A program made the position numbers and the translations under genes. Under the pieces are notes generated by a model. It saw only the letters and a program-made list of their open reading frames with translations, had not been told where the DNA came from and did not search any database. Below are positions 6,306 through 56,058 of a stretch of DNA of 64,000 bases, piece by piece; positions within the stretch are counted from its first letter, which is position 1, and every line of letters starts with the position of its first letter. Source of the stretch: an uncultured Actinomycetota bacterium (lineage in GTDB: Bacteria > Actinomycetota > Actinomycetes > Actinomycetales > Kineosporiaceae); the NCBI GenBank assembly GCA_963740575.1, contig CAVUET010000003.1:870887-934886 (forward strand), in the 5' to 3' direction.

Positions 6306-7922
6306 TCAGTCGGTGCTGTAGGCGGCCCAGTGGGAGGCGTCCCAGCCGTTGCCGGTCCAGCGGGATCCGTTCCAGCCGCCGCCGGTCCATCGGCTGCCGG
6401 TCCAGGTCATGTCGGTCCATCGGCTGCCGGTCCAGCGGGATCCGGCCCAATCGGTGCCGGTCCAGGTCGCGGTCGCCCAGGTGGTTCCGGTCCAGGTGTC
6501 GCCGGTCCAGCGGGAGCCGGTCCAGCGGGAGCCGTTCCAGATCCCGCCGTGCCAGGCGGCGGCTCGTTCCTGGGCGCGGGCCATCGCCTTGGCGTTGAAC
6601 GGGTGTCCGAAGATGTCCCGCTGCCCGGTCAGCGGGGTCGGCCCGTCGGTGACGTCGATCCCGCCGCGAGTGGCGTCCAGGTCGCCCTTGCCGGTGCTGG
6701 CCGGAAACGGCTGCGCCGCGGTCGCCGGGTCGGGTAGCGGCGCGGTAGTCGCGGCGTCGGCATTGACGAGGCCGTTGCCCCAGTGCACTCTCGCGCCGGC
6801 CGCGATCGCCTCCGGGCTGCGCAGCGGGGTTGCGGTGGCGGCCAGCAGGGCCTTGACCTGGTCAGGGCTGGCGGCTGGGTGGGCCTGCAGCACCAGCGCG
6901 GTGACCCCGGCGACGATCGCGGTCGCCTCGGAGGTGCCGGAGCCGCGCTGGAACCGGGTGCCGACCTGCCCGGTGTTGGTCGGCAGGGTGTCCACGAACG
7001 AGCCCGGCACCCGCAGCCCGATCACATGCATGGCCGGGGCGACCAGGTCGATCGGCCGCTTGCCGTTGCCGTGCTGGGCCCAGCCCGGGACCGCGTCGTC
7101 CAGCGGGTCAAGGGTCTTCTTCGGGTTGTCCGCGCCGACCGCGATCACGAACGGGTCATAGGCCGGATCGGCGGCCCGGTTGATCGTCTTGCCGTCGTTG
7201 CCGGACGCGGCGACCACCACGATCCCGTGCGCCCAGGCCTGCTCGACCGCCTGGTCCAGCGGGTCTTTGCGGTAGCCCTGGGTGGAGTCGGTGCCGTAGC
7301 TGAGGCTGATCACCCGGATGTTCAACCCCGGGTCGTGCGCGTGCTGGACCACCCAGTCGATGCCGGCGATCACCTGCGTCACATCCGCCGCACCGTCCGC
7401 GGCGCCGACCTTGACGTTGACGATCCGCGCCCCGGGTGCGATGCCCACGAACTTGGTCGTGTCGCTGTAGCCGAAGGAGTTCAGGCAGCTGCCGCAGCCC
7501 ACGCCGCTGGCGGGGACACCGGCATCCACCCCGGCGATCAGCCCGGCCATGAATGTGCCGTGCCCGTAGGCATCCAGCCCGGGCCTCACCGCGCCCGGGG
7601 CGTCGAAGGACAGATCGGGCCCGGTTACCACCTTCCCCGCCCGGGCCAGCCCCGGCACCGGCGCCACCCCGGTATCGATCACCGCGACATCCACGCCCGC
7701 CCCAGTGACACCGCGCGCCCACGCCGCCTGCGCCCCCACCATCCGCGAGATCGACGACAACGACCCCAGATCCGCCGGGTCATACCCCAACCCGGGCCAA
7801 ACCGACGCCGACGCACCCCCACCAGCCAAGACCGGCCCGGCGGCCAACGCCACCGCCCCCGCGACCAGCGCCACCCGCGACCGGCCCCGGGCCGGGCTCA
7901 ACGGTGCGTGCCTACCAGCCAT
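6306..7922 (-). CDS. Secreted subtilisin-like serine protease (peptidase S8) with a C-terminal W-rich pentapeptide repeat array
   Basis: Catalytic D/H/S motifs VAVIDTGV, HGTFMAGLIAG and GTSEATAIVAG. Signal peptide MAGRHAPLSPARGRSRVALVAGAVALAAGPVLA. A GGGGGAGG Shine-Dalgarno sits just upstream of ATG 7922. The tail reads WNGSRWTGSRWTGDTWTGTTW...GSRWTG, about 14 copies. Confidence 0.85.
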   Translation of the reverse strand: MAGRHAPLSPARGRSRVALVAGAVALAAGPVLAGGGASASVWPGLGYDPADLGSLSSISRMVGAQAAWARGVTGAGVDVAVIDTGVAPVPGLARAGKVVTGPDLSFDAPGAVRPGLDAYGHGTFMAGLIAGVDAGVPASGVGCGSCLNSFGYSDTTKFVGIAPGARIVNVKVGAADGAADVTQVIAGIDWVVQHAHDPGLNIRVISLSYGTDSTQGYRKDPLDQAVEQAWAHGIVVVAASGNDGKTINRAADPAYDPFVIAVGADNPKKTLDPLDDAVPGWAQHGNGKRPIDLVAPAMHVIGLRVPGSFVDTLPTNTGQVGTRFQRGSGTSEATAIVAGVTALVLQAHPAASPDQVKALLAATATPLRSPEAIAAGARVHWGNGLVNADAATTAPLPDPATAAQPFPASTGKGDLDATRGGIDVTDGPTPLTGQRDIFGHPFNAKAMARAQERAAAWHGGIWNGSRWTGSRWTGDTWTGTTWATATWTGTDWAGSRWTGSRWTDMTWTGSRWTGGGWNGSRWTGNGWDASHWAAYSTD

Positions 7923-8343
7923 GACAACCTCCCCCGTCGCCGACGGCAACAACTGCGCGATGCCCGCCGACCAACGTCCCGTAATGTGACTCGCACGGAA
8001 CGTTAGCGACCGCAGTCTCCTGGCGGGACAGATCCGCCGCATTCTGTCCGAACGCATGATCCGCCCGCCGTCCCGGTCCTCTGCTGCTTGACGTTCGAGG
8101 AGTACGTCCACTGTCCGGTTCGAGAAACGGCCAGAGGGACAGCCGGCGTTGACCTGGCCAGGGGCCACCACCTGGTGAAGGGCCTGTCGCGCAACGGCCG
8201 CACCGCCGTCCCGCGCCCCATCTCCAACGCTCCCGGCCGGGATGGGGCCAGGAATCTGGTCGACGACCGTCACCGGGTGGAGCCGCCTCGCTACCGTGGC
8301 CCCCATGCCGGGTGAGAGTGGGGACGTGCCACGCGTCAAGATC

Positions 8344-8574
8344 ATGAATGCGAACTGGTGTCCTGGCCGGGACGGTGCCGAGGGCACGTTCGCTGTCATG
8401 GTCATCACCGATGACGACCAGCGGCGCATCCTGACCGCAAGCCCGAGCGAGATGACCGCCCTGGTCGCTCTGGCAACCGCGGACACGGTCCTGGCCTGGG
8501 ACCAGACCCATCAGATGCTCATCGCGGCGAATATCGTCGGCCAGATGCCGTGGACGACACAAGACCGGCCGTGA
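8344..8574 (+). CDS. Small hypothetical protein
   Basis: ATG at 8344. GC3-biased ORF. No known domain. Confidence 0.25.
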   Translation: MNANWCPGRDGAEGTFAVMVITDDDQRRILTASPSEMTALVALATADTVLAWDQTHQMLIAANIVGQMPWTTQDRP

Positions 8575-8763
8575 TCGCGGATCTCATCCCCGTCTGAGTC
8601 CCGCTCGCGGCGCAGACGGTGACGGCGGCGGCGATGTTGTCGCTGCGCAGCCCAGCCGGTGCCACCACACGCGGGCGAGGCCCACACCCGCCGCGGCTCA
8701 AGCGCGGTCGAGGAGGCGTCGAGAATCGGACAAAGAGCCGCTCGCTGCGGCGAGAGGGGTGCC

Positions 8764-9180
8764 GTGCGCGCGCACGTCGAGGCCACCAGCTACGGCTACC
8801 AGGTCGTTGTGCCCGAGGCGATCACGGTGCTGGACCTGTTGACCTGGCTGCATGATGCGCGCCGGGCGGTCGCCGGGCGCGCAACGTTCGGGCAGCTGAT
8901 CGACCTGCGCGCACCGTCTCAGCTGCACCTGGACGGGGAGTGTGAGCGGATCATGCGGGAGATGATGACGGCGCTCAAGGAGCAGGGCCTGACGCGGTCG
9001 GCGGTGGTGGTCAGTTCCCCACAGGTGCGGCTGACGGCGCAGTCGTTGGCGGTTCAGACCCCGGTACGCGACTGGGAACGGTACTTCTGCGGGCATGACC
9101 CGCACTGGCAGACCGCGGCACTGGACTGGATCACCTGCGGCGCTGAACCGCTTGGTGGCCAGGCATTCCCGGGGCATTGA
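8764..9180 (+). CDS. Hypothetical protein, possibly STAS-like
   Basis: GTG 8764. Segment LIDLRAPSQLHLDGECERIMREMMTALKEQGLTRSAVVVSSPQVR resembles anti-sigma antagonist/STAS folds. Confidence 0.35.
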   Translation: MRAHVEATSYGYQVVVPEAITVLDLLTWLHDARRAVAGRATFGQLIDLRAPSQLHLDGECERIMREMMTALKEQGLTRSAVVVSSPQVRLTAQSLAVQTPVRDWERYFCGHDPHWQTAALDWITCGAEPLGGQAFPGH

Positions 9181-9246
9181 CACGAGCTCACCGGTGCCGA
9201 GGTGGCTGGGCTCTGACCCCATCCCGATGCTGGCCCCGGCGACGTC

Positions 9247-9804
9247 TCAGGACGGCAGCGGCAGCACCAGAGCGTCAAAGACCGGGGCGTGGGGCAGGTC
9301 GGGCCTGATCGCTGCGAGCCATGTGTAGCCCCATTGCTCGTAGCGGCGGCGCACCTTGGGGTGGGTCTGCTCGACCAGCAGGGTGGCGCGTTCCTCCGGT
9401 CGGGCGCGGACGAGTTCGTCGTGGATGCTGCGGGCGACGCTGGAACCGCGCCAGGGTGTACGGACCATGATCTCGTTCAGGGCGAAGGTGCGATGGCCTG
9501 TCTCCTCGAGCTCGTCGGACGCGACGGCGGTCAACAGTCCGCGCCACCACCCGGAGTCAGGCGCAAGCGGATGTCCGAAGGCGTAGCCCACGGGCTGGCC
9601 GTCCTGGCGGGCGAGGACGCATTCCCAGCCGGGGCGGGATGCGTAGCCGCACAGGCGCCGGTAGAACGCCCCCTCGCTGCTGAACGGCCCGGTCAGGACG
9701 GCTGCGTAGATCTCCGCGTAGACGTCCAGGAGGGTCGATTCAACGGACGCAAGGTCGGACCCGGACAGATGCTGGAGACGCAGCGGCGCGACGGGGCCGG
9801 TCAC
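9247..9804 (-). CDS. GNAT family N-acetyltransferase
   Basis: 185 aa with a GNAT-like core (...QPVGYAFGHP...FALNEIMVRTPWRGSSVARSIHDEL). Confidence 0.7.
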   Translation of the reverse strand: MTGPVAPLRLQHLSGSDLASVESTLLDVYAEIYAAVLTGPFSSEGAFYRRLCGYASRPGWECVLARQDGQPVGYAFGHPLAPDSGWWRGLLTAVASDELEETGHRTFALNEIMVRTPWRGSSVARSIHDELVRARPEERATLLVEQTHPKVRRRYEQWGYTWLAAIRPDLPHAPVFDALVLPLPS

Positions 9805-9816
9805 GGTGCCTCGCTC

Positions 9817-11151
9817 TCAACCGGTGGATGGCGTGGTGTCCGGGCCGAACTCGCCCCAGACGTCGAGAAAGGATCGCACGGCGGGGGATTGTCCCTGGCC
9901 GGTGATCTTGGCGCGGAACTTGTGCAGGCTGCCCAAGCCTCGATGCGAGTTCAACTCCTGCGCGGTCTGCAGGGCATCGGTGGCGGTCGCGCACGCCTCG
10001 TCAAGGCTTCGTTGACCGAGTTGCGCTCTGGCTTGGGTGACCTGGTACAGGAAGCGATTGCGACTGTATTGCGAATCGATCTGGGTGAGGGTGTCGGCCG
10101 CTGCCCTCTCGGCAGCTTTGTAGTTGCCCAACGCGAGATGGGCCTGGGCAACCAGCCCCGTCAGCTCGCCAGGCCCGAAGAAGGTCAGCCACGCGGGGAC
10201 CGGCGCGGAGGTGCCCTGACGGTCGAGCGCCCGTTCCGCCCGGGCGAAGGCGCGGGCGGAGCGAGCGGCCTCGCCGCAGCGCGCCAGGCCCGCGCCGGCT
10301 CTGGCCTGGAACAGCGCCGCGATCAGCGGGCTGTTGCGGGCTGCCTTCTGCCGTAAGGCTGCTCGGGCGATGGTGGTGCATTCGGCGGGGCGCCCGGCGA
10401 ACACGGCCTGGATCGCCATCACGACCAAGACGTGGGCATGCAGAACAGGGTCGTTGGCGATCAAGGCAAGGCGGAGCGCCTGGTTGTAGAACCGCTCGGC
10501 TGTCGTAGAGGACCCGGAGTCGAAGGCGAACCATCCAGCTGACACCGCGAACTCGCCGGCGATCGCATACAGCTCACGCTCGACCTGTTCGCTGTAGGTG
10601 CAGGTGGTCAAGGCGTCGGTGACCTGGGCGAACTCTCGGGAAGCCAGGTCGGCCAGATCACCTCCTCCATGGCGGGCATCGTGGCCGTGCAGCTTTCCGA
10701 GCCGATCCTGCAAGAACGCCATGTGGGACTGACCGATCCGACCCGTCAGCGGCACGGCCGGCGTCGAGGCGCCGGCAGCGACGCCGACGGAGTGAACCCT
10801 CAGCGCTTCGTTGGGTGCGGCGCGATCGAGACGTTGAGCGGGCATAGCGCGCACGGCGGCGCCGGCGGCGGCCAGGCGATCGAGGGAGACGCTTCCGCGG
10901 GGAATGAAGCCCAGGTCGAGCGCGGACCGCCCCAGCACATGCTCCAGCGCCAGCAGATAGCGCGGGTGCGGCCACTGCGCGGCCCCCGAGGTCCACCGGC
11001 GCACCTGGGTGTCGGTGCAGTTCCCCTGCTGGCCGAACAGGGCGGCTATCGAGTCGTTGACCCGTTCAGCCAGTTCGGCCTGGGTCAACGCCTGATCGTG
11101 CATGAGCGCGACCAATGCCGCGTTCGGACGCCTGCGTCGCGTGCCAGCCAC
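9817..11151 (-). CDS. XRE-family HTH transcriptional regulator with a C-terminal TPR-like helical domain
   Basis: N-terminal HTH LTQAELAERVNDSIAALFGQQ. Long Ala/Leu-rich TPR-like C-terminus typical of actinobacterial HTH-TPR regulators. Confidence 0.75.
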   Translation of the reverse strand: MAGTRRRRPNAALVALMHDQALTQAELAERVNDSIAALFGQQGNCTDTQVRRWTSGAAQWPHPRYLLALEHVLGRSALDLGFIPRGSVSLDRLAAAGAAVRAMPAQRLDRAAPNEALRVHSVGVAAGASTPAVPLTGRIGQSHMAFLQDRLGKLHGHDARHGGGDLADLASREFAQVTDALTTCTYSEQVERELYAIAGEFAVSAGWFAFDSGSSTTAERFYNQALRLALIANDPVLHAHVLVVMAIQAVFAGRPAECTTIARAALRQKAARNSPLIAALFQARAGAGLARCGEAARSARAFARAERALDRQGTSAPVPAWLTFFGPGELTGLVAQAHLALGNYKAAERAAADTLTQIDSQYSRNRFLYQVTQARAQLGQRSLDEACATATDALQTAQELNSHRGLGSLHKFRAKITGQGQSPAVRSFLDVWGEFGPDTTPSTG

Positions 11152-11349
11152 AGCTACCGAGCCGCCTCCACTGTGTCGGCTATGACGGGGCGATCCGGGA
11201 AGATCGTCCGCTCTTGGGAGCGTATCGCAGGGGTGGAAAACGTACGGTCGTGCAGGTCAGACGGCTATCAAACCGTCCTTCCGGGCAGGTTGCCCGTGCG
11301 TGATGCTTGATCCAGACCGGGCCGTCGGCGCCGGGAGCACAGGACGGGC

Positions 11350-12328
11350 GTGGAGGGCGAGATCGTGATCGGCGACGACGAGCGTCAGCTCGAGGGGACC
11401 GGGATCTCGGCGCTGGGCACACTGTCTGAGGCGGCCGCCTCGGCGTCGATAGCGGCTCTGGATTGTTCGGTTGCGAATAGTGCCCGGGTGTACGACTACT
11501 GGCTGGGCGGTAAGGACAACTTCGGTGTGGATCGGGAGGTCGGCGCGGCAGTCGCGGCGCTGGCCCCATGGATCGTGCCCGGGGTGCGGGCCAACCGGGC
11601 GTTCCTGCGCCGGGTCGTGCATTGCGTTGCAGACCAAGGGGTTTCACAGTTCCTCGACATCGGTGCAGGGCTCCCGACCAGGCCGAACGTGCACCAGGTC
11701 GCGCAGGCCCGCGACCCTCAGGCCCGGGTGGTCTACCTGGACAATGACCCGGTCGTGCTGGCCCACGCCCGGGCGCTGCTCGCGCGGGACGCACGGACCA
11801 TGGTCGCGGCCGGTGACGCGCGGGATCCGGCCGGGATCCTGGCCGACCCGGTGGTCATCGGGCACCTGGACTGGTCCCGGCCGGTGTGCGTGCTGCTCGG
11901 TGCGCTGCCGCACTTCCTGACCGACACCGACGACCCTGCCGGGACCGTGGCTGCGCTTCGGGCGGCGATGGTGCCGGGCAGCTTTCTGGTCATCTCCCAT
12001 TGCACACCGGGTGCGGGCCGGGCCCAGGCGGCGGCGGTCTCGCAGGCGGTGCGCCTGTACCAGGAGCAGGCCGCCCCGTTCACCCCCCCGCGACCGGCCC
12101 CAGATCGCGGCCTGGCTGCACGGCCTGGACCTGGTCACGCCGGGACTGGTGGCCGTGGACCGCTGGCGAGCCAAACCCCGGCGGCCGGGCCCGCCGATGC
12201 CGATGCTGGCCGCGCTCGCCCGAGTCCCGGGCGACCAACCCAGCCAGGTGCGGATCGCGATCCGGGGTACAGGTGGCCAGGCGGATCAGTCCCTCCTGAT
12301 GGCGCACGGAGATCGGGACCGGTAGCCC
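11350..12328 (+). pseudogene. SAM-dependent methyltransferase (actinobacterial Methyltransf_19/DUF574-like) with a +1 frameshift in a C7 homopolymer at 12082-12088
   Basis: Frame 1 carries ARVYDYWLGGKDNFGVDRE...FLDIGAGLPT...VVYLDNDPVV...QEQAAPFTPP. The conserved C-terminus QIAAWLHGLDLVTPGLVAVDRWRAKPRR continues in frame 2 (ORF 12011..12325). Confidence 0.6.
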
Positions 12329-12894
12329 CGGCTGGCGCCCCCGGGTGCTCGGGCTGGCTGCCAGGTGACCGTGCGGGCCTTGCGCTGGTGGGGCCAGCGG
12401 CGTGGGAAGGCCGCCGCTGGTCCTGCCCTCCACGCCTGCGCCGAGCAGCCGTAGGCCAGGATCCGCCTCGGCGCAGGCACCGGCGGTACCGGTGACCGTG
12501 GCCAGCCCCCAAGCTCGGTCACCGGTACCGCCCCACCTGTCCGGGATCGCCACGGCATTCGGCCCGGCCGTGGTGGTCCTCGGGGACGTGCCAACCGGTC
12601 ACGACGCACCTCGACACGGCCGTGATGGTCGGCAGCAACCCTGACGCTCGCCCCATGGTGGCGCTCGTCGTCACGCCGATGGTCACCTCGTCCTGGCCGC
12701 TGCGCGGCGGCCTGGCCCTGGCCCGGCTGGACACTGCTGTGGACCGTCGTCGCAGCGCGGGTGATGAACCAGGGCCGAACGCGCCGGGGTTCGGACGGCA
12801 CCGCGAGCGCCAGACAATCCGCGACTGACCGGTACGGCAGCGGCCTCGGTCCCCACGCCCGAGAAGGCTGCGCACTGTCCTGGGGATGGGGGCA

Positions 12895-13718
12895 TAGCCG
12901 GGCGAGGCTCACCCATCGGCCCTCATCGACCCGGCCACCATCACCCAAGCCCGAGCCCTGGCCGCCAGCCGCGCCGACGCACACACGCAACGCGCGGCCT
13001 CACCGGCGGACTACTACCTCACCGGGCTGATCACCTGCCCCGACTGCGGCGGGAAGTACATCGGCACCGCCGCCCACGGCCGCTCCCGGCCCTACCGGTA
13101 CTACACCTGCTACTCCCGCAGCCGGTACGGCCCGGCAGGATGCCCCGCAGCACGGCTGGACGCCGACGCCACCGACACCGCCGTCCTAGCGGCCCTGGCT
13201 GACTTCTACGCCCGCGCCGACACCCTCCTCGGCCCGGCCATCTCCGCCGCACAGGCCCACCACCGGGCCGCGCACGCCGACCGCCGCACCGAACTCGAGG
13301 TCATCGCTAGCCAGATCAACCAGGCCACGGCCGCGATCGACCGATACCACGCCGCGTTCGAGAAGGGCACCATGACCGACGAGACCGCCGGGCCCCGGAT
13401 CACCGAACTCCGTCGCAAGATCACCCAACTCCAGGCCCGGCGCGACCGACTCACCCACGATCTGGCCACCGAACCGCAGTCCCCGCCTCCAGCAGCGGTC
13501 GAGGCCGTGCGCAACCAGTTGCGCGAGGTCATCGCAGGCGGCAGCTCCGGGGAACGCAAGCGCGCCGTCGAAGCCCTCACCCACGAGATCCGGATCGAGG
13601 ACGACAACCTCATCCCCGTCTTCAAGATCCCCCAACCCCGCCACCCGGCACCTGGGCCGGACCGCAGCGAACCGGCAGCCACCAGCCCGATGGCCACCGG
13701 TTCGCGCAATGGTGCGAT
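12895..13718 (+). mobile_element. 3' remnant of a large serine recombinase (integrase). It lacks the catalytic N-terminal domain and has no start codon.
   Basis: Frame 1 opens after the TAG at 12892. It reads LIDPATITQARALAASRADAHTQ...YYLTGLITCPDCGGKYIG...YRYYTCYSRSRYGPAGCPAARLDA (recombinase zinc-ribbon) followed by a coiled-coil tail. The ORF runs into tRNA-Met, so the end given is approximate. Confidence 0.6.
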
Positions 13719-13860
13719 TGGTGGGGCGGGTGGGGCTCGAACCCACGACCGACGGATTATGAGTCCGCTGCTCTGACCGGCTGAGCTACCGCCCCAGCGA
13801 CCGGCCTGCCTGCCCGCCACGGCGAGCGGGATGAGCCTAACGGGTCCTGGTGGTTCCCGT
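13700..13860. repeat. Direct repeat copy A (tRNA-Met plus about 60 bp of 5' flank and a short 3' flank). Its partner is 15172-15328.
   Basis: Flank gcgaccggcctgcctgcccgccacggcgagcgggatgagcctaacgggtcctggtggttc matches ggcgaccggtctgcccgccatggcgagcgggatgagcctaacgggtccgggtggttc. Confidence 0.8.
13719..13795 (-). tRNA. tRNA-Met (anticodon CAT), copy 1, with encoded CCA
   Basis: Reverse complement is GGGGCGGTAGCTCAGCCGGTCAGAGCAGCGGACTCATAATCCGTCGGTCGTGGGTTCGAGCCCCACCCGCCCCACCA. This gives a 7-bp acceptor stem, D-arm, anticodon loop CTCATAA and T-arm GTGGGTTCGAGCCCCAC. Confidence 0.85.
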
Positions 13861-13934
13861 GCGGAGCGCAGAACGCCTGCTCTCACCCCGGCCGCGGGAC
13901 CGGCCGCGGCTTCCGTGACGACAGCTGAGTCGCA

Positions 13935-14396
13935 TCAGTCCAGGCAGAACTCGTTGCCCTCCGGGTCGGTCATCACGATGAAGCCGGCGCTCATCGGCGG
14001 CGCGGGCTCGTGGCGACGTAGCCGCGTCGCCCCCAATGCGACGAGACGGTCGCACTCGACCTCCAGCGCCAGCATCCGCTCCTGCCCCTGCAGTCCGGGA
14101 GCCGCACGGACGTCGAGGTGGACGCGATTCTTGGCGACCTTGTCCTCCGGCACCTGCTGGAAGAACAGCCGTGGGCCGTGCCCGTCGGGGTCCTCGATGG
14201 CCGATCTCGTGTTGCGCTGCTCCTCCGGTACGCCGACCCGCTCCAGGAAGTCATCCCACGCGGCCAGCGGGTCGGCGCCCTCGGGCAGGTCGACTCCGGG
14301 TGGGCCGGGGTGGACGTAGCCCAGCACGTCGCGCCAGAAGGACGACAGCGCCCGAGGGTCGTGAGCGTCGAAAGTGACCTGGACATGGCGGCTCAT
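13935..14396 (-). CDS. VOC/glyoxalase-family protein
   Basis: Starts MSRHVQVTFDAHDPRALSSFWRDVLGY...RVHLDV...GFIVMTDPEGNEFCLD. The ORF upstream of Met59 was rejected. Confidence 0.7.
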   Translation of the reverse strand: MSRHVQVTFDAHDPRALSSFWRDVLGYVHPGPPGVDLPEGADPLAAWDDFLERVGVPEEQRNTRSAIEDPDGHGPRLFFQQVPEDKVAKNRVHLDVRAAPGLQGQERMLALEVECDRLVALGATRLRRHEPAPPMSAGFIVMTDPEGNEFCLD

Positions 14397-14595
14397 CGGG
14401 TCGCTCCGTTCGTGGCGGGTTCCGCGTGCAGGTGAAGGTCGCAGTTCGTCGCCGTTGCCGCAGGCGCCCAACCGGTTCCGTCGCGCGGCATCCGCGTGGC
14501 CACTGTGGATCCGGAGCGACGGCTCACGACTGCCGGAACTGGTCTCCCTGGCGGGCAACGCCGCACTCACACTACGGGTCCTGGCCGGTCACGGC

Positions 14596-14847
14596 TCAGT
14601 AGTGGTAGCGCGCCTGGACGATGACGATCTCGTCCGCTTGGATCTTGTAGACCAGACGGTGCTCACCGTCGATCCGACGCGACCAGTACCCCGAGAGGTT
14701 CGCCGTCAGCCGTTCAGGCTTGCCGATCCCCTCACCGGGGTTGCGCTTGGCCTCCTCGATCATCCGGTTGATGCGCAGGAGGATCCTGCGGTCACCGCTC
14801 CAGGAGCAGTAGTCGTCCCAGCCGTGGTCGGAGAAGACGATCTTCAC
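14596..14847 (-). CDS. yoeB: YoeB/Txe-family toxin (mRNA interferase)
   Basis: Reads VKIVFSDHGWDDYCSWS...RINRMIEEAKRNPGEGIGKPERLTANLSGYWSRRIDGEHRLVYKIQADEIVIVQARYHY. GTG start lies 13 nt after the yefM stop. Confidence 0.8.
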   Translation of the reverse strand: MKIVFSDHGWDDYCSWSGDRRILLRINRMIEEAKRNPGEGIGKPERLTANLSGYWSRRIDGEHRLVYKIQADEIVIVQARYHY

Positions 14848-14860
14848 TGCGGCGCGACCC

Positions 14861-15112
14861 TCACTCAGCGTCGACCAGCTCGTGTGGAACCGCTCCACCG
14901 CCCTCGACCTGTGCGATGGAGCGGAGCAGCCGTTCGGCGTTGGCAGGGGAACGCAGCAAGTGAGCCGTCTCGGTGAGGGATCGGTACTGAGCCTCGGACA
15001 CCAGGTAGGCCGTGCCCTTCCGGGACACAATCTCGACCGGCTCCTGGTCGTCGTTGACCTGCTCGATGAGCGGGAACAGGTTCTTCCTCGCTTCGCTCGC
15101 CGTGATAGCCAT
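14861..15112 (-). CDS. yefM: YefM/Phd-family antitoxin
   Basis: Reads MAITASEARKNLFPLIEQVNDDQEPVEIVSRKGTAYLVSEAQYRSL. A GGGAGAG Shine-Dalgarno lies upstream. An alternative GTG start is at 15118. Confidence 0.8.
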   Translation of the reverse strand: MAITASEARKNLFPLIEQVNDDQEPVEIVSRKGTAYLVSEAQYRSLTETAHLLRSPANAERLLRSIAQVEGGGAVPHELVDAE

Positions 15113-15171
15113 GGACACTCTCCCGTCTGGTACCAGACCACGGTACCAGACGCGCGGTTGTCAACCGCGTG

Positions 15172-15328
15172 ACCGGTTCGCGCGACGGTCCAAAGTGGGG
15201 CGGGTGGGGCTCGAACCCACGACCGACGGATTATGAGTCCGCTGCTCTGACCGGCTGAGCTACCGCCCCGGCGACCGGTCTGCCCGCCATGGCGAGCGGG
15301 ATGAGCCTAACGGGTCCGGGTGGTTCGT
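15172..15328. repeat. Direct repeat copy B (partner of 13700-13860)
   Basis: See copy A. About 160 bp is conserved. The two copies bracket a 1.47 kb cassette. Confidence 0.8.
15195..15268 (-). tRNA. tRNA-Met (CAT), copy 2. Body identical to copy 1 but with no encoded CCA.
   Basis: Same 74-nt body as copy 1. The 3' end reads ...CCGCCCCAC then TTTGG. Confidence 0.8.
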
Positions 15329-15470
15329 CGCGGCGGTCACCCGCAGCCGGCACGCCGGCGCACGACCCAGCGGTATCCGGGTCCTGCCGCAGGAGCGAAG
15401 ATCAGGACTATGGTTTTGACTGGATCCGGCCACCCCGGGTCGGGCCGGGCCGCGTCACGCGGGAGCGATC

Positions 15471-16484
15471 ATGACCTGGACCCATCTCGTGCACTCCGAT
15501 CCCCTGCCGTGGCTGCTGGACACCGAGAATCCGGCGGTCCGGGCGGCGACCCTGACCCGGCTGCTGGACCGTCCTGCGGATGATCCGGAGGTGGCGGCCG
15601 CGCGGCGGGCGGCGATGCGGGCCGACCCGATCCGGGCCATCCTCGACGCGCAGCTGCCGTCCGGAGCCTGGGCCAAACCCGGCCCCGGATACTCGCCCAA
15701 GTACCGGGCGACCGTGTGGCAGGTGATCTTCCTCGACCAGCTCGGCGCTGACCCCGGCCACGAGCAGGTGCAGCGCGCCGCCGAGTACGTGCTGACCCAC
15801 ACCCAGGCTGGTACCGGGGGGATGGGCGCATCCGGGGTCCTGGACGGACAGGCGCGGCCGTCCACCGCGATCCACTGCCTGCACGGCAACCTGCTGCGCG
15901 CCCTGATCGGCTTCGGCCGGCTGGACGACCCACGCGTGCGGGCAGCCGTCGACTGGGCGGCCCGGACCATCACCGGGACCGACGTCGACCGGTACTACGC
16001 CTCGGGCACCAGCGGCCCGGGATTCGCCTGCGCCGCGAACGAGGGCAGGCCCTGCGCCTGGGGCGCTGTCAAGGAGCTGCTCGGCCTGGCCAGGATCCCC
16101 ACGTCCCGGCGCGATCCCCTGGTACGGCAGGCGATCGAGCAGGGTGTGGCCTTCCTGCTCTCCCGTGACCCGGCGGTGGCCGACTACCCGATGCCGTCCC
16201 GGGACAGCAAGCCGTCCAGCTCGTGGTTCAAGCTCGGCTTCCCCAGCGGCTATGTGACCGACGTGCTGCAGAACCTCGAGGCGCTCGCCGAACTCGGGCA
16301 CGCCCGCGACCGGCGCCTGGCCGCCGCGCTCGGCTGGGTCACCGCGCAGCAGCGCCCGGACGGGCGCTGGCTCAACCGCTACGCCTACAACGGAAAGACG
16401 ACCGTGGACATCGAGCGACAGGGCCGGCCTTCCAAATGGGTCACGCTGCGCGCCTGCACCGTGCTGCGCGCCGCCTACGGCTGA
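15471..16484 (+). CDS. Hypothetical protein, possibly a prenyltransferase/terpene-cyclase-like alpha/alpha-toroid repeat protein
   Basis: 337-aa intact ORF with repeated helical-hairpin segments. The family call is tentative. Confidence 0.4.
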   Translation: MTWTHLVHSDPLPWLLDTENPAVRAATLTRLLDRPADDPEVAAARRAAMRADPIRAILDAQLPSGAWAKPGPGYSPKYRATVWQVIFLDQLGADPGHEQVQRAAEYVLTHTQAGTGGMGASGVLDGQARPSTAIHCLHGNLLRALIGFGRLDDPRVRAAVDWAARTITGTDVDRYYASGTSGPGFACAANEGRPCAWGAVKELLGLARIPTSRRDPLVRQAIEQGVAFLLSRDPAVADYPMPSRDSKPSSSWFKLGFPSGYVTDVLQNLEALAELGHARDRRLAAALGWVTAQQRPDGRWLNRYAYNGKTTVDIERQGRPSKWVTLRACTVLRAAYG

Positions 16485-22609: not shown

Positions 22610-23611
22610 GTGGGCGACACGACCTCCCCCCGGATCGGGATCCTCGTGCTCGCCTACAACGCGTCGACGACCGTCGTGCCGACCCTCGAGCGCATCCCGG
22701 CGGCCTTCCGCCCCCGGATCGCCGAGATCATCGTCCTGGACGACGCCAGCAGCGACGACACCGCGGATCAGGCCCGGGCCTGGGCGGAGCGGGAGGACAG
22801 CCCGCCCACCCTGGTGGTGCGGCACGAGACGAACCAGGGGTACGGCGGGAACCAGAAGGCCGCCTACACGCTGGCCATCGAGCGCGGCCTGGATCTCGTG
22901 GTCCTGCTGCACGGCGACGGGCAGTACGCGCCGGAGAGCCTGCCCGACATGGTCGAGCCCCTGGTCCGCGGCGAGTGCGACGCGGTGATGGGCTCCCGGA
23001 TGATGATCCCCGGCAACGCCCGACGCGGCGGCATGCCGCTGTACAAGCTGATCGGCAACAAGGTGCTCGCCGGGATCCAGAACCGGCTGCTCGGGATGCA
23101 CCTGACGGAGTTCCACTCCGGCTACCGCGCCTACAGCACGGCGGCGCTGCGTGAGCTGCCGTTCCACCGCAACTCAGACGATTTCGACTTCGACACCCAG
23201 ATCATCATCCAGCTCAAGCACGCGCGGAAACGGCTGGTGGAGATCCCCATCCCGACCTTCTACGGCGACGAGATCTGCTACGTGAACGGGCTGCGCTACG
23301 CCCGCGACATCCTGCTCGACGTGGTCACCTACCGGCTCGTGCTAGGCGGCCGTCGCAGCGTCGACTGGGTGACGCCGCGGCAGGACGTCGTCACCCTGCC
23401 GCCGGCTGAGGCTCGGTCCGGTCAGGTCGGTCCGGTCAGCTCGGTCCGGTCAGGCTCGGTCCGGTCAGGCTCGGTCCGGTCAGGCTCGGTCCGGTCAGGC
23501 TCGGTCCGGTCAGGCTCGGTCCGGTCAGGCTCAGCCCGGTCAGGCAGCGGTTGCTCGGACCGTCGAGCAGCGGACACCGACAGCAGCAGTGCCGCCAGGC
23601 TCAGCAGGTAG
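22610..23611 (+). CDS. GT2-family glycosyltransferase (polyprenol-phosphate sugar synthase-like) with a low-complexity SVRSG-repeat C-terminus
   Basis: Reads IGILVLAYNAS...IIVLDDASSDDT...GYGGNQKAAY...LLHGDGQY...DFDFDTQIIIQ. GTG 22610 is preceded by GAGGAGC. Confidence 0.8.
   Translation: MGDTTSPRIGILVLAYNASTTVVPTLERIPAAFRPRIAEIIVLDDASSDDTADQARAWAEREDSPPTLVVRHETNQGYGGNQKAAYTLAIERGLDLVVLLHGDGQYAPESLPDMVEPLVRGECDAVMGSRMMIPGNARRGGMPLYKLIGNKVLAGIQNRLLGMHLTEFHSGYRAYSTAALRELPFHRNSDDFDFDTQIIIQLKHARKRLVEIPIPTFYGDEICYVNGLRYARDILLDVVTYRLVLGGRRSVDWVTPRQDVVTLPPAEARSGQVGPVSSVRSGSVRSGSVRSGSVRSGSVRSGSVRSGSARSGSGCSDRRAADTDSSSAARLSR
23418..23545. repeat. 18-bp tandem repeat (ggtccggtcaggctcggtcc-like, about 7 copies). 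It encodes SVRSG repeats on the plus strand and EPDRT repeats on the minus strand.
   Basis: Directly visible in the sequence. It is shared by the 3' ends of two convergent ORFs. Confidence 0.85.
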
Positions 23612-26741: not shown

Positions 26742-26814
26742 CACGCATCAATGCGGGTCAAGCTCCCGCGACTGGACTCGAACCAGTAACCTGCCGGTTA
26801 ACAGCCGGACGCTC
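26742..26814 (-). tRNA. tRNA-Asn (anticodon GTT)
   Basis: Reverse complement is TCCCGCGTAGCTCAATCGGCAGAGCGTCCGGCTGTTAACCGGCAGGTTACTGGTTCGAGTCCAGTCGCGGGAG. Cloverleaf is consistent, with anticodon loop CTGTTAA. Confidence 0.8.
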
Positions 26815-26950
26815 TGCCGATTGAGCTACGCGGGATCGGCGTCCAGAACTGTACCAAGCCCGGGCGTACCGCTGCGCCACCGGGGCATCGCGCGTCGCAG
26901 CCGTCAGCCGCTGGCGCCGCGGCCATCCGTACAGACTCCACTGCCCGGGT

Positions 26951-49444: not shown

Positions 49445-49458
49445 CTCGTCTCCTCCGT

Positions 49459-49510
49459 CAGGTGCTGTGCAGGTTTCAGGTGCTGTGCAGGTTTCAGGTG
49501 CTGTGCAGGA
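49459..49510. repeat. 18-bp tandem repeat caggtgctgtgcaggttt, 2.9 copies, in the tadC-flp spacer
   Basis: Directly visible. It lies between the flp start (49444) and the tadC stop (49494) and spans the tadC stop. Confidence 0.8.
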
Positions 49511-55693: not shown

Positions 55694-56005
55694 ATGACCC
55701 AGACCGATCAGCCACCTCCGATGGTGGCCAACCCCTACAAGGCGGCGATCGGCCAGGCCATCGCCCAGGCCCGACCGGTCGCGGGCGCGTGCGCCAGCGC
55801 GCTGGACGAGGCGATCGCAGCGATGAAGGGGCAGGCGTGGGTCAGCACCACGGCCGACGCGTTCTTCGCGGCGCTGACCGCCTGCGACGGTGATGCGGCG
55901 CAGGCCGGTCAGGACTGCCTGGATGCGCTCCAGCACGCCCACGACTCCTGCCCGGATCAGGTGCCCGCGGGGTCGGCCTACACGCGCTGGCAACGGATGT
56001 TCTGA
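55694..56005 (+). CDS. Small helical protein, possibly the second WXG100-like partner
   Basis: 103 aa. Reads ...GQAWVSTTADAFFAALTA... Adjacent to the WXG100 gene. Confidence 0.4.
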   Translation: MTQTDQPPPMVANPYKAAIGQAIAQARPVAGACASALDEAIAAMKGQAWVSTTADAFFAALTACDGDAAQAGQDCLDALQHAHDSCPDQVPAGSAYTRWQRMF

Positions 56006-56058
56006 GCCAACGGATGTTCTGAGCCAACGGATGTTCTGAGCCAACGGATGTTCTGAGC
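55991..56058. repeat. Perfect 17-bp tandem repeat caacggatgttctgagc, 4 copies plus a degenerate fifth
   Basis: Directly visible. Copy 1 encodes the last residues and stop codon of ORF 55694..56005. Confidence 0.9.

Follow-up and report, generated by a model that had tools for sequence, protein, structure and literature searches.

The two tRNA(CAU) genes found in the 64,000-nucleotide stretch of DNA analyzed here (the window) probably mark a degraded array of junctions that is no longer mobile and that was created by large serine recombinases (LSRs) using the tRNA(CAU) gene as their chromosomal attachment site. In an element of this kind, the attachment site would overlap the 3′ end of the integrase gene and hold a replacement for the 3′ part of the tRNA, and, on integration, a complete tRNA gene would be restored, with the integrase gene ending inside it in a tail-to-tail arrangement. 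Copy 1 of the tRNA (13719-13795) is such a junction, the integrase of which later lost approximately its first 205 to 230 codons, including the catalytic serine domain; the side to its left is now a block nearly identical to that of a related metagenome contig, L083. Copy 2 (15195-15269) is a second junction of the integrase-proximal type, with approximately 23 nt of its integrase tail left. Between the two lie a yefM-yoeB operon with its own palindromic operator and a horizontally moving VOC gene. The features of the locus are listed below.

7930..12940, no strand: block 99 to 100% identical to L083 (blastn, sliding identity)
12326..12897, no strand: ORF-less stretch, without a Pfam match in any ORF, between a frameshifted Methyltransf_19 gene and the LSR remnant
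12898..13776, plus strand: LSR C-terminal fragment, 292 codons, no start codon; Pfam, Zn_ribbon_recom only
13699..13711, plus strand: LSR-tail motif GGTTCGCGCAATG, a family signature, with its TTCG starting 18 nt from the 3′ end of tRNA copy 1
13719..13795, minus strand: tRNA(CAU) copy 1, ARAGORN tRNA(cat), Rfam tRNA 73.1 bits, with encoded CCA
13796..13857, minus strand: upstream repeat of copy 1, 62 nt, 85% identical to that of copy 2
13935..14396, minus strand: VOC/Glyoxalase_6 gene, 153 aa; PF18029, E = 9e-26, covering the whole protein
14596..14850, minus strand: yoeB toxin gene, 84 aa; Pfam YoeB_toxin, E = 6e-34
14861..15118, minus strand: yefM antitoxin gene, 85 aa; Pfam PhdYeFM_antitox, E = 2e-19
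15128..15151, no strand: operator-like inverted repeat TGGTACCAGAC / CGGTACCAGAC, just upstream of yefM, as read from the sequence
15172..15194, plus strand: LSR-tail remnant of approximately 23 nt with the motif GGTTCGCGCGACG at the canonical 18-nt spacing, adjoining tRNA copy 2
15195..15269, minus strand: tRNA(CAU) copy 2, ARAGORN tRNA(cat), Rfam tRNA 73.1 bits, without encoded CCA
15270..15327, minus strand: upstream repeat of copy 2, 85% identical to that of copy 1

The tRNA(CAU) pair and the truncated recombinase

A preliminary description of this DNA had reported a duplicated tRNA(CAT) with conserved flanks in direct orientation, the copies differing solely in the encoded CCA, and ARAGORN, Rfam, and the copy-to-copy alignment agreed with it. 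The 74-nt tRNA bodies are identical, the copies are 1,474 bp apart, and their 3′ ends read ..CCCCA-CCA in copy 1 and ..CCCCA-CTT in copy 2. The repeat units extend over approximately 13696-13857 and 15172-15327, in which the roughly 24 nt located 3′ of the tRNA are 73% identical, the tRNA 100%, and the 62 nt located 5′ of it 85%. Such a repeat is not due to chance, because a 22-mer of the T-arm occurs twice versus 0 expected and the flank motif GGTTCGYRCRAYG occurs twice in the window versus 0.06 expected. An element-specific LSR-tail motif, GGTTCGCGCRAYG, is present at both tRNA copies, 18 nt from the tRNA 3′ end, and no third copy of the tRNA-flank repeat was found in the window.

The tRNA-Met label given previously probably needs to be replaced. 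When compared with E. coli tRNAs, the eight best-scoring matches among those listed were annotated as tRNA-Ile; H3, the one of these that was inspected, carries a CAT anticodon. On the antisense strand of the tRNA, there was a below-threshold match to the Rfam Plastid-ycf2 5′UTR, an RNA that we take to adjoin trnI-CAU. From their sequences, the two copies are probably tRNA-Ile2(CAU) of the lysidine type rather than elongator tRNA-Met. Initiator identity was ruled out by the G1-C72 pair and by an anticodon stem lacking three G-C pairs. A scan of 12200-15600 for sigma-70 promoters and intrinsic terminators gave no match, which is expected for a high-GC actinobacterium and is uninformative on tRNA expression.

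The recombinase gene adjoining copy 1 is truncated. Consistent with the preliminary description, in which it was a 3′ part with neither a catalytic domain nor a start, the fragment consists of the end of the recombinase domain, a zinc ribbon, a putative coiled-coil region, and a tail, and the last 58 nt of its frame run antisense through tRNA copy 1. Pfam identified only the zinc ribbon (PF13408, E = 1e-13, profile positions 2 to 57 of 58), whose cysteines C47, C50, C71, and C82 are invariant in an alignment (A2) with the relatives; the resolvase catalytic domain (PF00239) with its nucleophilic serine was not found in the fragment by Pfam, and the Recombinase domain (PF07508) likewise gave no Pfam match, with only its last residues, AHPSALIDPAT, left at 12904-12940. 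No trace of the first 205 to 230 codons was detected in the 64-kb window by tblastn with five full-length relatives.

A search against other LSRs, as proposed earlier, aligned the fragment from residue ~229 to the end of full-length recombinases of 485 to 510 aa with up to 65% identity (55 to 65% over 94 to 99% of the fragment for P0001, P0005, and P0006). The fragment alone matched nothing in the PDB by phmmer, and the profile of the LSR family matched the A118 C-terminal domain structure 4KIS; the coiled-coil region after the zinc ribbon appears to be kept in the fragment through to the C-terminus. A functional truncated protein encoded by the 292-codon frame was rejected, because many indels break the L083 ortholog and long open frames arise readily at 70% GC. 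The fragment is a catalytically dead remnant, and the element at copy 1 would no longer be able to excise because its integrase has lost the catalytic serine domain.

A clade of recombinases associated with tRNA genes

The abutment of the recombinase on tRNA copy 1 is real, as described earlier, but it is not an accident of the scar; it is the normal junction of an LSR clade, because the LSR frames of relatives also end at or inside tRNA genes. In a set of 80 metagenomic loci that encode relatives of the fragment, 43 show a tRNA, lying on the opposite strand, whose 3′ end abuts the integrase frame; tRNA and frame overlap in 41 of the 43, with a modal overlap of 43 to 44 nt. The contigs of 16 further relatives stop within 200 nt of the integrase end. 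The association is family-wide, the adjoining tRNAs being Met/Ile2, Lys, Leu, Ala, Val, Glu, and Asn. Intact relatives include L085, a 481-aa three-domain integrase overlapping tRNA-Lys, and L148 and L130, with a Resolvase + Recombinase + Zn_ribbon architecture.

These junctions share a conserved tail motif. Its core, TTYGYRM, lies 18 to 20 nt from the tRNA 3′ end in 39 of the 43 metagenomic LSR-tRNA junctions and at 22 nt in one more, and the spacing of 18 to 20 nt is held in three different reading frames. The family tail motif, GGTTCG(Y)(R)CAATG at 18 to 20 nt, is matched by both copies in the window at 18 nt. The conserved tail motif is also written GGTTCGCGC.

At least nine loci (L087, L100, L105, L109, L112, L118, L139, L150, and the IMG/VR contig L174) carry attP-like, unrecombined forms, in which a partial tRNA, from its 3′ end to about the anticodon stem, is followed by unrelated DNA. 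These unrecombined sites carry only tRNA positions ~28 to 76, without the 5′ third or the promoter, and in all of the integrated LSR-tRNA junctions the acceptor and T stems are perfectly paired. Integration by the LSR clade would be a serine recombination with a crossover inside the tRNA, somewhere between the anticodon loop and the T-loop. One finding counts against this reading of the junctions: a normal attachment site of 50 bp with its crossover in the anticodon loop would be too short to include the conserved tail motif. No distal partial-tRNA repeat was found within 10 kb of the 43 integrase-tRNA junctions, no complete element with both ends was seen among the relatives or in the window, and the surroundings of the intact relatives examined (L148 and L130) yielded no conjugation, replication, or phage genes.

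The profile of the family matches the solved serine integrases SPbeta SprA and A118, and its match to characterized integrases (these two, Bxb1, and phiC31) covers the catalytic, recombinase, and zinc-ribbon domains. However, the targets of those enzymes are protein-coding genes or intergenic DNA, and their attachment sites are separate from the 3′ end of the integrase gene, whereas the recombinases described here end inside tRNA-like sequence and have a conserved motif at a fixed distance. We lean, if only slightly, toward the view that the fragment comes from a broad, essentially uncharacterized actinobacterial LSR clade that has tRNA genes of at least seven isoacceptor types as its targets, an attachment site inside the integrase 3′ end, and a motif at a fixed 18 to 20 nt in three reading frames.

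Cargo and age of the locus

The genes between the tRNA copies matched their earlier descriptions. An intact yefM-yoeB module is retained there, as judged from the Pfam matches of both genes, the end-to-end alignment of YoeB, and low dN/dS. The yefM gene is directly upstream of yoeB, 10 nt separating the two genes on one strand, and YoeB aligns with E. coli YoeB (PDB 2A6Q) over residues 2 to 84 (phmmer E = 8e-26), with KPE, HRLVY, and the terminal RYHY conserved. It retains the residues aligned to the active site of E. coli YoeB, which consists of Glu46, Arg65, His83, and Tyr84. The operator-like repeat contains two palindromic GGTACC hexamers, 13 bp apart from center to center, and is conserved in L083. 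The order of antitoxin and toxin, their sizes (85 and 84 aa), and the upstream palindromes with a GTAC core resemble those of E. coli YefM-YoeB (2A6Q) and M. tuberculosis RelJK (3OEI), although the hexamer of the E. coli operator is TGTACA and not GGTACC. With respect to L083, dN/dS was 0.13 for yoeB and 0.08 for yefM, indicating purifying selection on the toxin-antitoxin genes, and dS was 0.48 for yoeB and 0.54 for yefM, close to the 0.67 of a core 337-aa gene. The pair was already present when the L083 lineage split off and has been passed on since.

The glyoxalase-like gene was confirmed by its Pfam Glyoxalase_6 match. More than 100 protein clusters, spread over many genera of actinobacteria, contain proteins with at least 86% amino acid identity to its product, and the gene is 89.8% identical over 511 nt to that of Streptomyces sp. 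NBC_01451 (dS 0.33). Because of this nucleotide identity of approximately 90% to a Streptomyces gene, it is considered to move horizontally among actinobacteria. Its dS versus L083 was 0.19, and the locus is accordingly ordered by age, the VOC gene being younger than the toxin-antitoxin pair. These values (0.48 to 0.54 for the toxin-antitoxin genes versus 0.19) show that the VOC gene and yefM-yoeB, described earlier as one cassette, are not one unit.

The comparison with L083, the sole close relative compared and a metagenome contig of uncertain accuracy, also dates the scar. The core genes of L083 are about 84% identical to those of the window, and its architecture is the same. Both the DNA between the tRNA copies and the recombinase remnant recur in it, which makes the scar an old one. 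The preliminary description would have been contradicted by relatives with unrelated intervening DNA and no recombinase homology; in L083, by contrast, the intervening DNA and the recombinase remnant both match those of the window. An empty tRNA site, which it had suggested looking for in related genomes, was found in L002, which has an identical, single tRNA with no integrase tail motif downstream, in a relative that is distant (57% amino acid identity in a neighboring 1308-aa protein). A scan of reference genomes with this 1308-aa protein gave only distant relatives and no close cultured ones, and the contexts of other homologs of the 337-aa neighbor (L084, L170, and L171) were not syntenic and contained no empty or intermediate sites.

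Along the locus, identity to L083 forms a mosaic of 99 to 100%, about 80%, 92 to 98%, and about 85%. The near-identical block, 7930 to 12940, contains part of an S8 subtilase ORF, a GNAT gene, a gene for a 444-aa regulator, and the Methyltransf_19 gene, and its right edge lies ~40 nt inside the LSR remnant. Homologs of the regulator and the methyltransferase are present inside the LSR elements L106, L112, and L123, and the block is likely to be island cargo recently exchanged between the lineages of the window and L083. As stated earlier, the region upstream of the recombinase has no coherent ORF: no Pfam match was obtained in 12326-12897, to the left of which the frameshifted end of the Methyltransf_19 gene reaches to about 12325. 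This stretch is 99 to 100% identical to L083 and contains a perfect 17-bp inverted repeat (12482-12498/12516-12532).

In the 3′ flank, orthologs of the window and L083 are 92% and 79% identical versus 69 to 73% for paralogs, and the copy-2 tails of both have a common 2-nt deletion relative to copy 1. The repeat in L083 is shorter, consisting of the tail, the tRNA, and about 15 nt. The stretch upstream of copy 1 is 98% identical to its ortholog in L083, and that upstream of copy 2 is 48% identical to its own, which is the background level; this mismatch points to gene conversion in the window lineage or decay in L083. An origin of the copy-2 tail through gene conversion by copy 1 was rejected on account of the 2-nt deletion common with copy 2 of L083 and the identities of 79% versus 69 to 73%.

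Origin of the two junctions and its implications

A single integration produces two unlike junctions, one integrase-proximal and one distal. At the proximal junction, the element tail and the 3′ part of the tRNA are joined to the chromosomal 5′ part of the tRNA and its promoter side, and the distal junction has only a partial tRNA 3′ fragment. Both copies in the window consist of a full-length tRNA with the integrase-tail motif and the chromosome-specific 5′ part. Because both carry the LSR-tail motif and the chromosomal 5′ part, they are integrase-proximal-type junctions and not attL and attR of one element, and the element of copy 1 lay leftwards, outside the bracket. No distal junction, i.e., a partial tRNA 3′ copy in direct orientation, was found in the 64-kb window, where the T-arm 22-mer had only two matches with up to three mismatches. 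The idea of a scar left by an element at a tRNA gene therefore held with regard to site-specific integration, but not with regard to the copies bracketing one element, as both are of the proximal type.

These observations bear on the other origins that may be considered. It is quite improbable that one element integrated at the tRNA, leaving the copies as attL and attR and the VOC gene and yefM-yoeB as its remainder. Direct repeats containing the tRNA do flank a 1.4-kb segment with typical island cargo (a toxin-antitoxin pair and a mobile VOC gene), and the GC content of the segment is slightly lower, at 0.665 to 0.68 versus 0.72 to 0.75. However, the anatomy of the junctions already contradicts this reading: each copy comprises a complete tRNA, upstream sequence, and the integrase-tail motif, where one integration would give one such copy and a partial tRNA, the unrecombined sites of the family holding only tRNA positions ~28 to 76; moreover, the integrase remnant is outside the bracket, and the parts of the cassette are unlike in age (dS 0.5 for the toxin-antitoxin pair and 0.19 for VOC). 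It is also rather doubtful that there were two native tandem tRNA(CAU) genes, each hit independently, with the element of copy 2 nearly all deleted except for ~23 nt of tail and perhaps the toxin-antitoxin and VOC cargo. Such a history would account for the presence of an integrase tail at each of two full-length tRNAs and for the low similarity of these tails (73% identity and a 2-nt indel), which is what different elements would produce, and elements of the family carry VOC-like and regulator cargo; yet no relative with two native tandem copies was found (L002, L001, L163, and L164 have one), there is no distal partial tRNA between the VOC gene and copy 1, and two precise deletions would be required.

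A less doubtful but still unlikely origin is the later duplication of one junction through unequal crossing-over, insertion of a Campbell-type circle, or homology-assisted insertion from another lineage, the 1,476-bp unit being the insertion. When 13696-15171 is taken out, a canonical single junction remains (upstream, tRNA, and integrase tail), the identity mosaic versus L083 reflects repeated DNA exchange at the locus, and the VOC gene is horizontally mobile. On the other hand, there is no direct trace of a donor or a circle, the 73% tail identity must then be due to decay after the duplication, and the shorter repeat of L083 makes the original unit uncertain. Within the array of LSR junctions that we favor, the second junction could have arisen when a second tRNA copy was targeted independently, or through duplication or homologous insertion of a junction, and the toxin-antitoxin pair may stabilize the 1.4-kb segment against deletion by direct-repeat recombination.

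Serine integrases, which are widely used in genome engineering, are generally regarded as avoiding tRNA genes. Eight AICEs of Mycobacterium with serine recombinases were located in tRNA-Leu, a targeting that was called rare (Ghinet et al. 2011, PMC3218068), and a TIGER survey assigned 14 of 297 serine-integrase islands (a share given as 4.9%) to t(m)RNA genes (Mageeney et al. 2020, PMC7192596), with experimental proof of tRNA targeting by serine integrases stated as lacking (PMC7192596). The targeting of tRNA genes by serine integrases is thus rare but has been reported before, and the locus in the window is an ordinary kind of genomic scar. Both the Mycobacterium AICEs and the TIGER islands resemble it in having an LSR with Resolvase, Recombinase, and Zn ribbon (seen here in intact relatives), an actinobacterial host, and a tRNA target, and tRNA-Leu, used by the AICEs, is among the tRNAs adjoining the relatives; they differ in that the LSR of the window is a dead fragment and that no conjugation or replication genes lie near the intact relatives examined. 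As in pSAM2 and SLP1-type tyrosine-integrase islands and prophages, the integrase lies by the tRNA 3′ end, the 3′ part is replaced so that the tRNA stays intact, and tandem or decayed arrays accumulate at one tRNA. Unlike in those islands, the enzyme is a serine recombinase, and there are no attL/attR partial-tRNA repeats, both repeats being full tRNAs with the same type of junction.

The locus itself is a fossil, which illustrates the pile-up and decay of islands at a tRNA gene and a toxin-antitoxin pair as a long-lived survivor. The near-identity of the VOC gene in distant actinobacterial genera is a separate small puzzle. Beyond this, the locus draws attention to tRNA-targeting integrases, a group that has received little study, and the 43 junctions over seven tRNA types, together with the at least nine unrecombined sites, provide candidate attP/attB pairs. 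If the proposed clade is real, the motif with its fixed spacing would have a function at the DNA level, e.g., as an arm of the attachment site or a signal for tRNA-trailer processing, and the clade would represent a new family of serine integrases with universally conserved genes as natural landing pads.

Two tRNA(CAU) copies and the integrase remnant

ARAGORN predicted two tRNA genes with a CAT anticodon on the minus strand, and a serine integrase fragment on the plus strand reads into the first of them. The features of the locus are as follows.

12898-13776, plus strand, integrase remnant (Pfam, recombinase zinc-ribbon model alone)
13699-13711, tail motif, a DNA motif in the integrase-gene tail, at copy 1
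13719-13795, minus strand, tRNA(cat) copy 1 (ARAGORN; Rfam tRNA model, 73 bits)
13935-14396, minus strand, Glyoxalase_6 (VOC) gene, 153 aa (Pfam)
14596-14850, minus strand, yoeB (Pfam)
14861-15118, minus strand, yefM (Pfam)
15175-15187, tail motif at copy 2
15195-15269, minus strand, tRNA(cat) copy 2 (ARAGORN; Rfam tRNA model, 73 bits)

The 74-nt bodies of the two copies show no differences, and they are followed by an encoded CCA in copy 1 and by CTT in copy 2. The repeat outgrows the tRNA on both sides (approximately 13696-13857 and 15172-15327), with 73% identity over about 24 nt on the 3′ side and 85% over 62 nt on the 5′ side. Within the 64 kb, a T-arm 22-mer occurred twice (expected, 0), as did the flank motif GGTTCGYRCRAYG (expected, 0.06). 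The predictions, the Rfam scores, and the repeat identities thus confirmed the two tRNA(CAT) copies with repeated flanks that a preliminary description had reported, and the Pfam assignments confirmed the glyoxalase-like gene and yefM-yoeB enclosed by them. The tRNA-Met label given there probably does not hold. The best eight matches listed in a comparison with Escherichia coli are all annotated as tRNA-Ile, and the single one inspected has a CAT anticodon. The window genes have G1-C72 and lack initiator features, and their antisense strand gives a sub-threshold Rfam match to the plastid ycf2 5′UTR, which adjoins trnI-CAU in plastids. Judged by sequence, they are probably tRNA-Ile2 genes of the lysidine type.

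A tRNA-Asn gene at 26762-26835 lies 11.5 kb from the tRNA(CAU) in the window and 7.5 kb from it in L002, a more distant relative, with a 1308-aa aminotransferase fusion gene in between in both; the distance is only 40-115 nt in three other loci (L001, L163, and L164).

The integrase remnant aligns with full-length recombinases of 485-510 aa from about residue 229 to the end, with up to 65% identity, and a tblastn search found the N-terminal part to be absent from the entire window. No recognizable ORF was found in 12326-12897, and this stretch is preceded by a Methyltransf_19 gene whose 3′ end is frameshifted. The Pfam and tblastn results bear out the earlier view of the 3′ half of a serine recombinase gene running into copy 1, with ORF-free DNA upstream. 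The Methyltransf_19 gene (11350-12325) is frameshifted near 12080, with profile positions 215-250 in another frame, and is unbroken in L083, a 31-kb metagenome contig that is the sole close relative. The ORF-free stretch holds a perfect 17-bp inverted repeat (12482-12498 and 12516-12532; GGCGGTACCGGTGACCG ... CGGTCACCGGTACCGCC) with a 17-nt spacer. Homologues of the Methyltransf_19 gene and of the 444-aa regulator, which also lies left of the remnant, were found within elements of the integrase family (L106, L112, and L123). By analogy with L085 and other family loci, the element of the remnant would have reached leftwards, outside the tRNA bracket.

Tandem repeats occur elsewhere in the window: a perfect 17-nt unit in four copies at 55991-56058 (CAACGGATGTTCTGAGC), a perfect 18-nt unit in 2.9 copies at 49458-49509, a 15-nt unit in nine copies with 95% identity at 23409-23545, and 13 degenerate 15-nt units at 6342-6540, within an S8 subtilase ORF (6306-8486, minus strand).

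Integrase tails and tRNA genes across the family

Several full-length relatives of the remnant also have C termini that consist of translated antisense tRNA sequence. We used an alignment of the C-terminal half to search metagenome contigs and ran ARAGORN on all of the resulting 80 loci. An opposite-strand tRNA abutted the integrase frame with its 3′ end in 43 of them and was overlapped by the frame in 41, most commonly by 43-44 nt; the tRNA types were CAU (Met/Ile2), Lys-UUU, Leu-UAG, Ala, Val, Glu, and Asn. In 16 more contigs, the integrase ended less than 200 nt from the contig end, and assemblies typically break at repeated sequence. In L085, a separate case, a tRNA-Lys(CTT) is overlapped by an integrase of 481 aa that has the three domains Resolvase, Recombinase, and Zn_ribbon; L148 and L130 show all three as well. 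The family profile matches the solved serine integrases SPbeta SprA and A118. An integrase gene running into a tRNA is the normal state of this family.

The core of GGTTCG(Y)(R)CAATG was found 18-20 nt beyond the tRNA 3′ end at 39 of the 43 junctions and at 22 nt in one more, and this spacing holds whichever tRNA type adjoins. The motif is read as VRAM..VG in 34 cases, as GSRNG, the phase of the window, in five, and in a third phase in one. Because all three reading frames keep it, the tail motif seems to be constrained at the DNA level. Both window copies carry it (GGTTCGCGCAATG) 18 nt from the tRNA 3′ end.

At least nine loci (L087, L100, L105, L109, L112, L118, L139, L150, and the viral contig L174) close in a partial tRNA(CAU) instead, with a match that starts at the tRNA 3′ end, breaks off around the anticodon stem, and gives way to unrelated DNA. 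They resemble the unrecombined site of the element, which argues that the element carries the 3′ part of a tRNA beside the integrase tail. Integration would then couple this part to the 5′ part of a chromosomal tRNA. In the Pseudofrankia genomes of L087 and L088, a 453-aa family integrase adjoins only a partial, attP-like tRNA(CAU) 3′ fragment, with a Glyoxalase_4 gene directly after it and a 2194-aa TIR-domain protein 7 kb away; these may be an element caught in its unrecombined form.

Relatives and ages of the segments

The sequence appears to come from the MAG of an uncultured actinobacterium, and the 337-aa core neighbor right of copy 2 has no homologue above 79% identity besides itself. 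The gene order of L083 matches that of the window (Methyltransf_19, integrase remnant, copy 1, VOC, yoeB, yefM, copy 2, and the 337-aa gene), and the nucleotide identity between the two is a mosaic.

Nucleotide identity of the window to L083, by block
7930 to ~12940, left block: 99-100%
~12940-13800, integrase remnant and tRNA copy 1: 74-90%, many indels
13800-14600, VOC block: 92-98%
14600-15200, toxin-antitoxin genes: 83-87%
~150 nt right of copy 2, intergenic: essentially unalignable
beyond 15460, core genes: ~84% overall

The left block, at least 5 kb long, is 99-100% identical to positions 1-7500 of L083 although the core genes are at about 84%, and its right edge lies about 40 nt into the integrase remnant. 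In L083 it is interrupted, at the position corresponding to ~9060 of the window, by a Transposase_29 insertion sequence of 2.5 kb, which the window lacks. Against L083, dS was lowest for VOC (0.19), followed by yoeB (0.48), yefM (0.54), and the 337-aa gene (0.67).

The toxin-antitoxin pair is nearly as old as the core, and its dN/dS of 0.08-0.13 against L083 shows that yefM-yoeB is under purifying selection. The window YoeB can be aligned with E. coli YoeB (PDB 2A6Q) over its full length, the C-terminal RYHY included, and two GGTACC palindromes (15129-15134 and 15142-15147), 13 bp apart, lie directly upstream of yefM. The VOC protein, on the other hand, has counterparts with 86% identity or more in over 100 protein clusters, which come from Streptomyces, Micromonospora, Pseudonocardia, Amycolatopsis, Nonomuraea, and Acidimicrobiia. 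Its gene has 89.8% nucleotide identity over 511 nt to that of Streptomyces sp. NBC_01451, with a dS of 0.33, which is smaller than the divergence of the core genes from L083, the closest relative, and no tRNA was found near the VOC gene in that Streptomyces genome. These sequence comparisons argue that the VOC gene moves horizontally on its own; the VOC and yefM-yoeB genes are not one unit. An 18-nt exact match (E ~1e-3) links 13794-13811, i.e., the tRNA 5′ end and upstream sequence, to two Streptomyces loci (L172, 6503-6520; L173, 4049-4066), in inverted relative orientation; in both, it lies 28 nt downstream of the VOC gene. The match is due to chance or else marks the vehicle of this gene.

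In the 3′ flank, the window and L083 are 92% identical between copy-1 orthologues and 79% between copy-2 orthologues, whereas paralogues are 69-73% identical, and both copy-2 tails share a 2-nt deletion; both junctions were therefore in place before the two lineages separated. The 62-nt upstream stretch of window copy 2 is 85% identical to copy 1 and 48% identical, i.e., at background level, to its own L083 orthologue, which points to gene conversion in the window lineage or decay in L083. Copy 2 of L083 (of the pair at 9734-9807 and 8261-8336 there) has a TAT anticodon and a broken acceptor stem. The acceptor stem of L083 copy 1 contains a single G-G mismatch, and the 3′ strands of this copy match a different natural allele, that of L163. 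This may reflect a scar from a hybrid junction or an error in sequencing. L002, with an identical tRNA in single copy and no integrase tail, is an empty site. L001, L163, and L164 have one tRNA(CAU), which lies between an integrase and tRNA-Asn.

Junction anatomy and its meaning

A single integration would leave two unlike junctions: an integrase-proximal one made up of the tail motif, a tRNA 3′ part from the element, a tRNA 5′ part from the chromosome, and upstream DNA, and a distal one with a partial tRNA alone. Both window copies have a complete tRNA, upstream sequence, and the tail motif at its usual distance of 18 nt; therefore, both are integrase-proximal junctions. They are of the same type and not the two ends of one element, contrary to the preliminary description, which saw the locus as the scar of an integrated element; the integrase remnant lies outside the bracket. 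No distal partial tRNA was found within the window.

The locus is best read as an array of two fossil junctions that serine integrases left at one tRNA. At the outer junction, the integrase is truncated, locking its element in place; at the inner one, it is down to about 23 nt. The second junction may stem from a separate integration into a second tRNA copy, or from the duplication or insertion of a junction. Between the two junctions lie the yefM-yoeB pair, kept by selection, and the mobile VOC gene, and the toxin-antitoxin pair might counter-select events in which the 160-bp direct repeats recombine and the 1.4-kb segment is lost.

Ghinet et al. described eight Mycobacterium elements with serine recombinases that insert in one tRNA-Leu gene and termed such targeting rare (PMC3218068), and Mageeney et al., who called for experimental proof, located 14 of their 297 serine-integrase islands at t(m)RNA genes (PMC7192596). 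In light of these reports, tRNA targeting by serine integrases is a known but thinly documented kind. The window locus is a dead member of it and of low interest in itself; the integrase clade behind it merits moderate interest.
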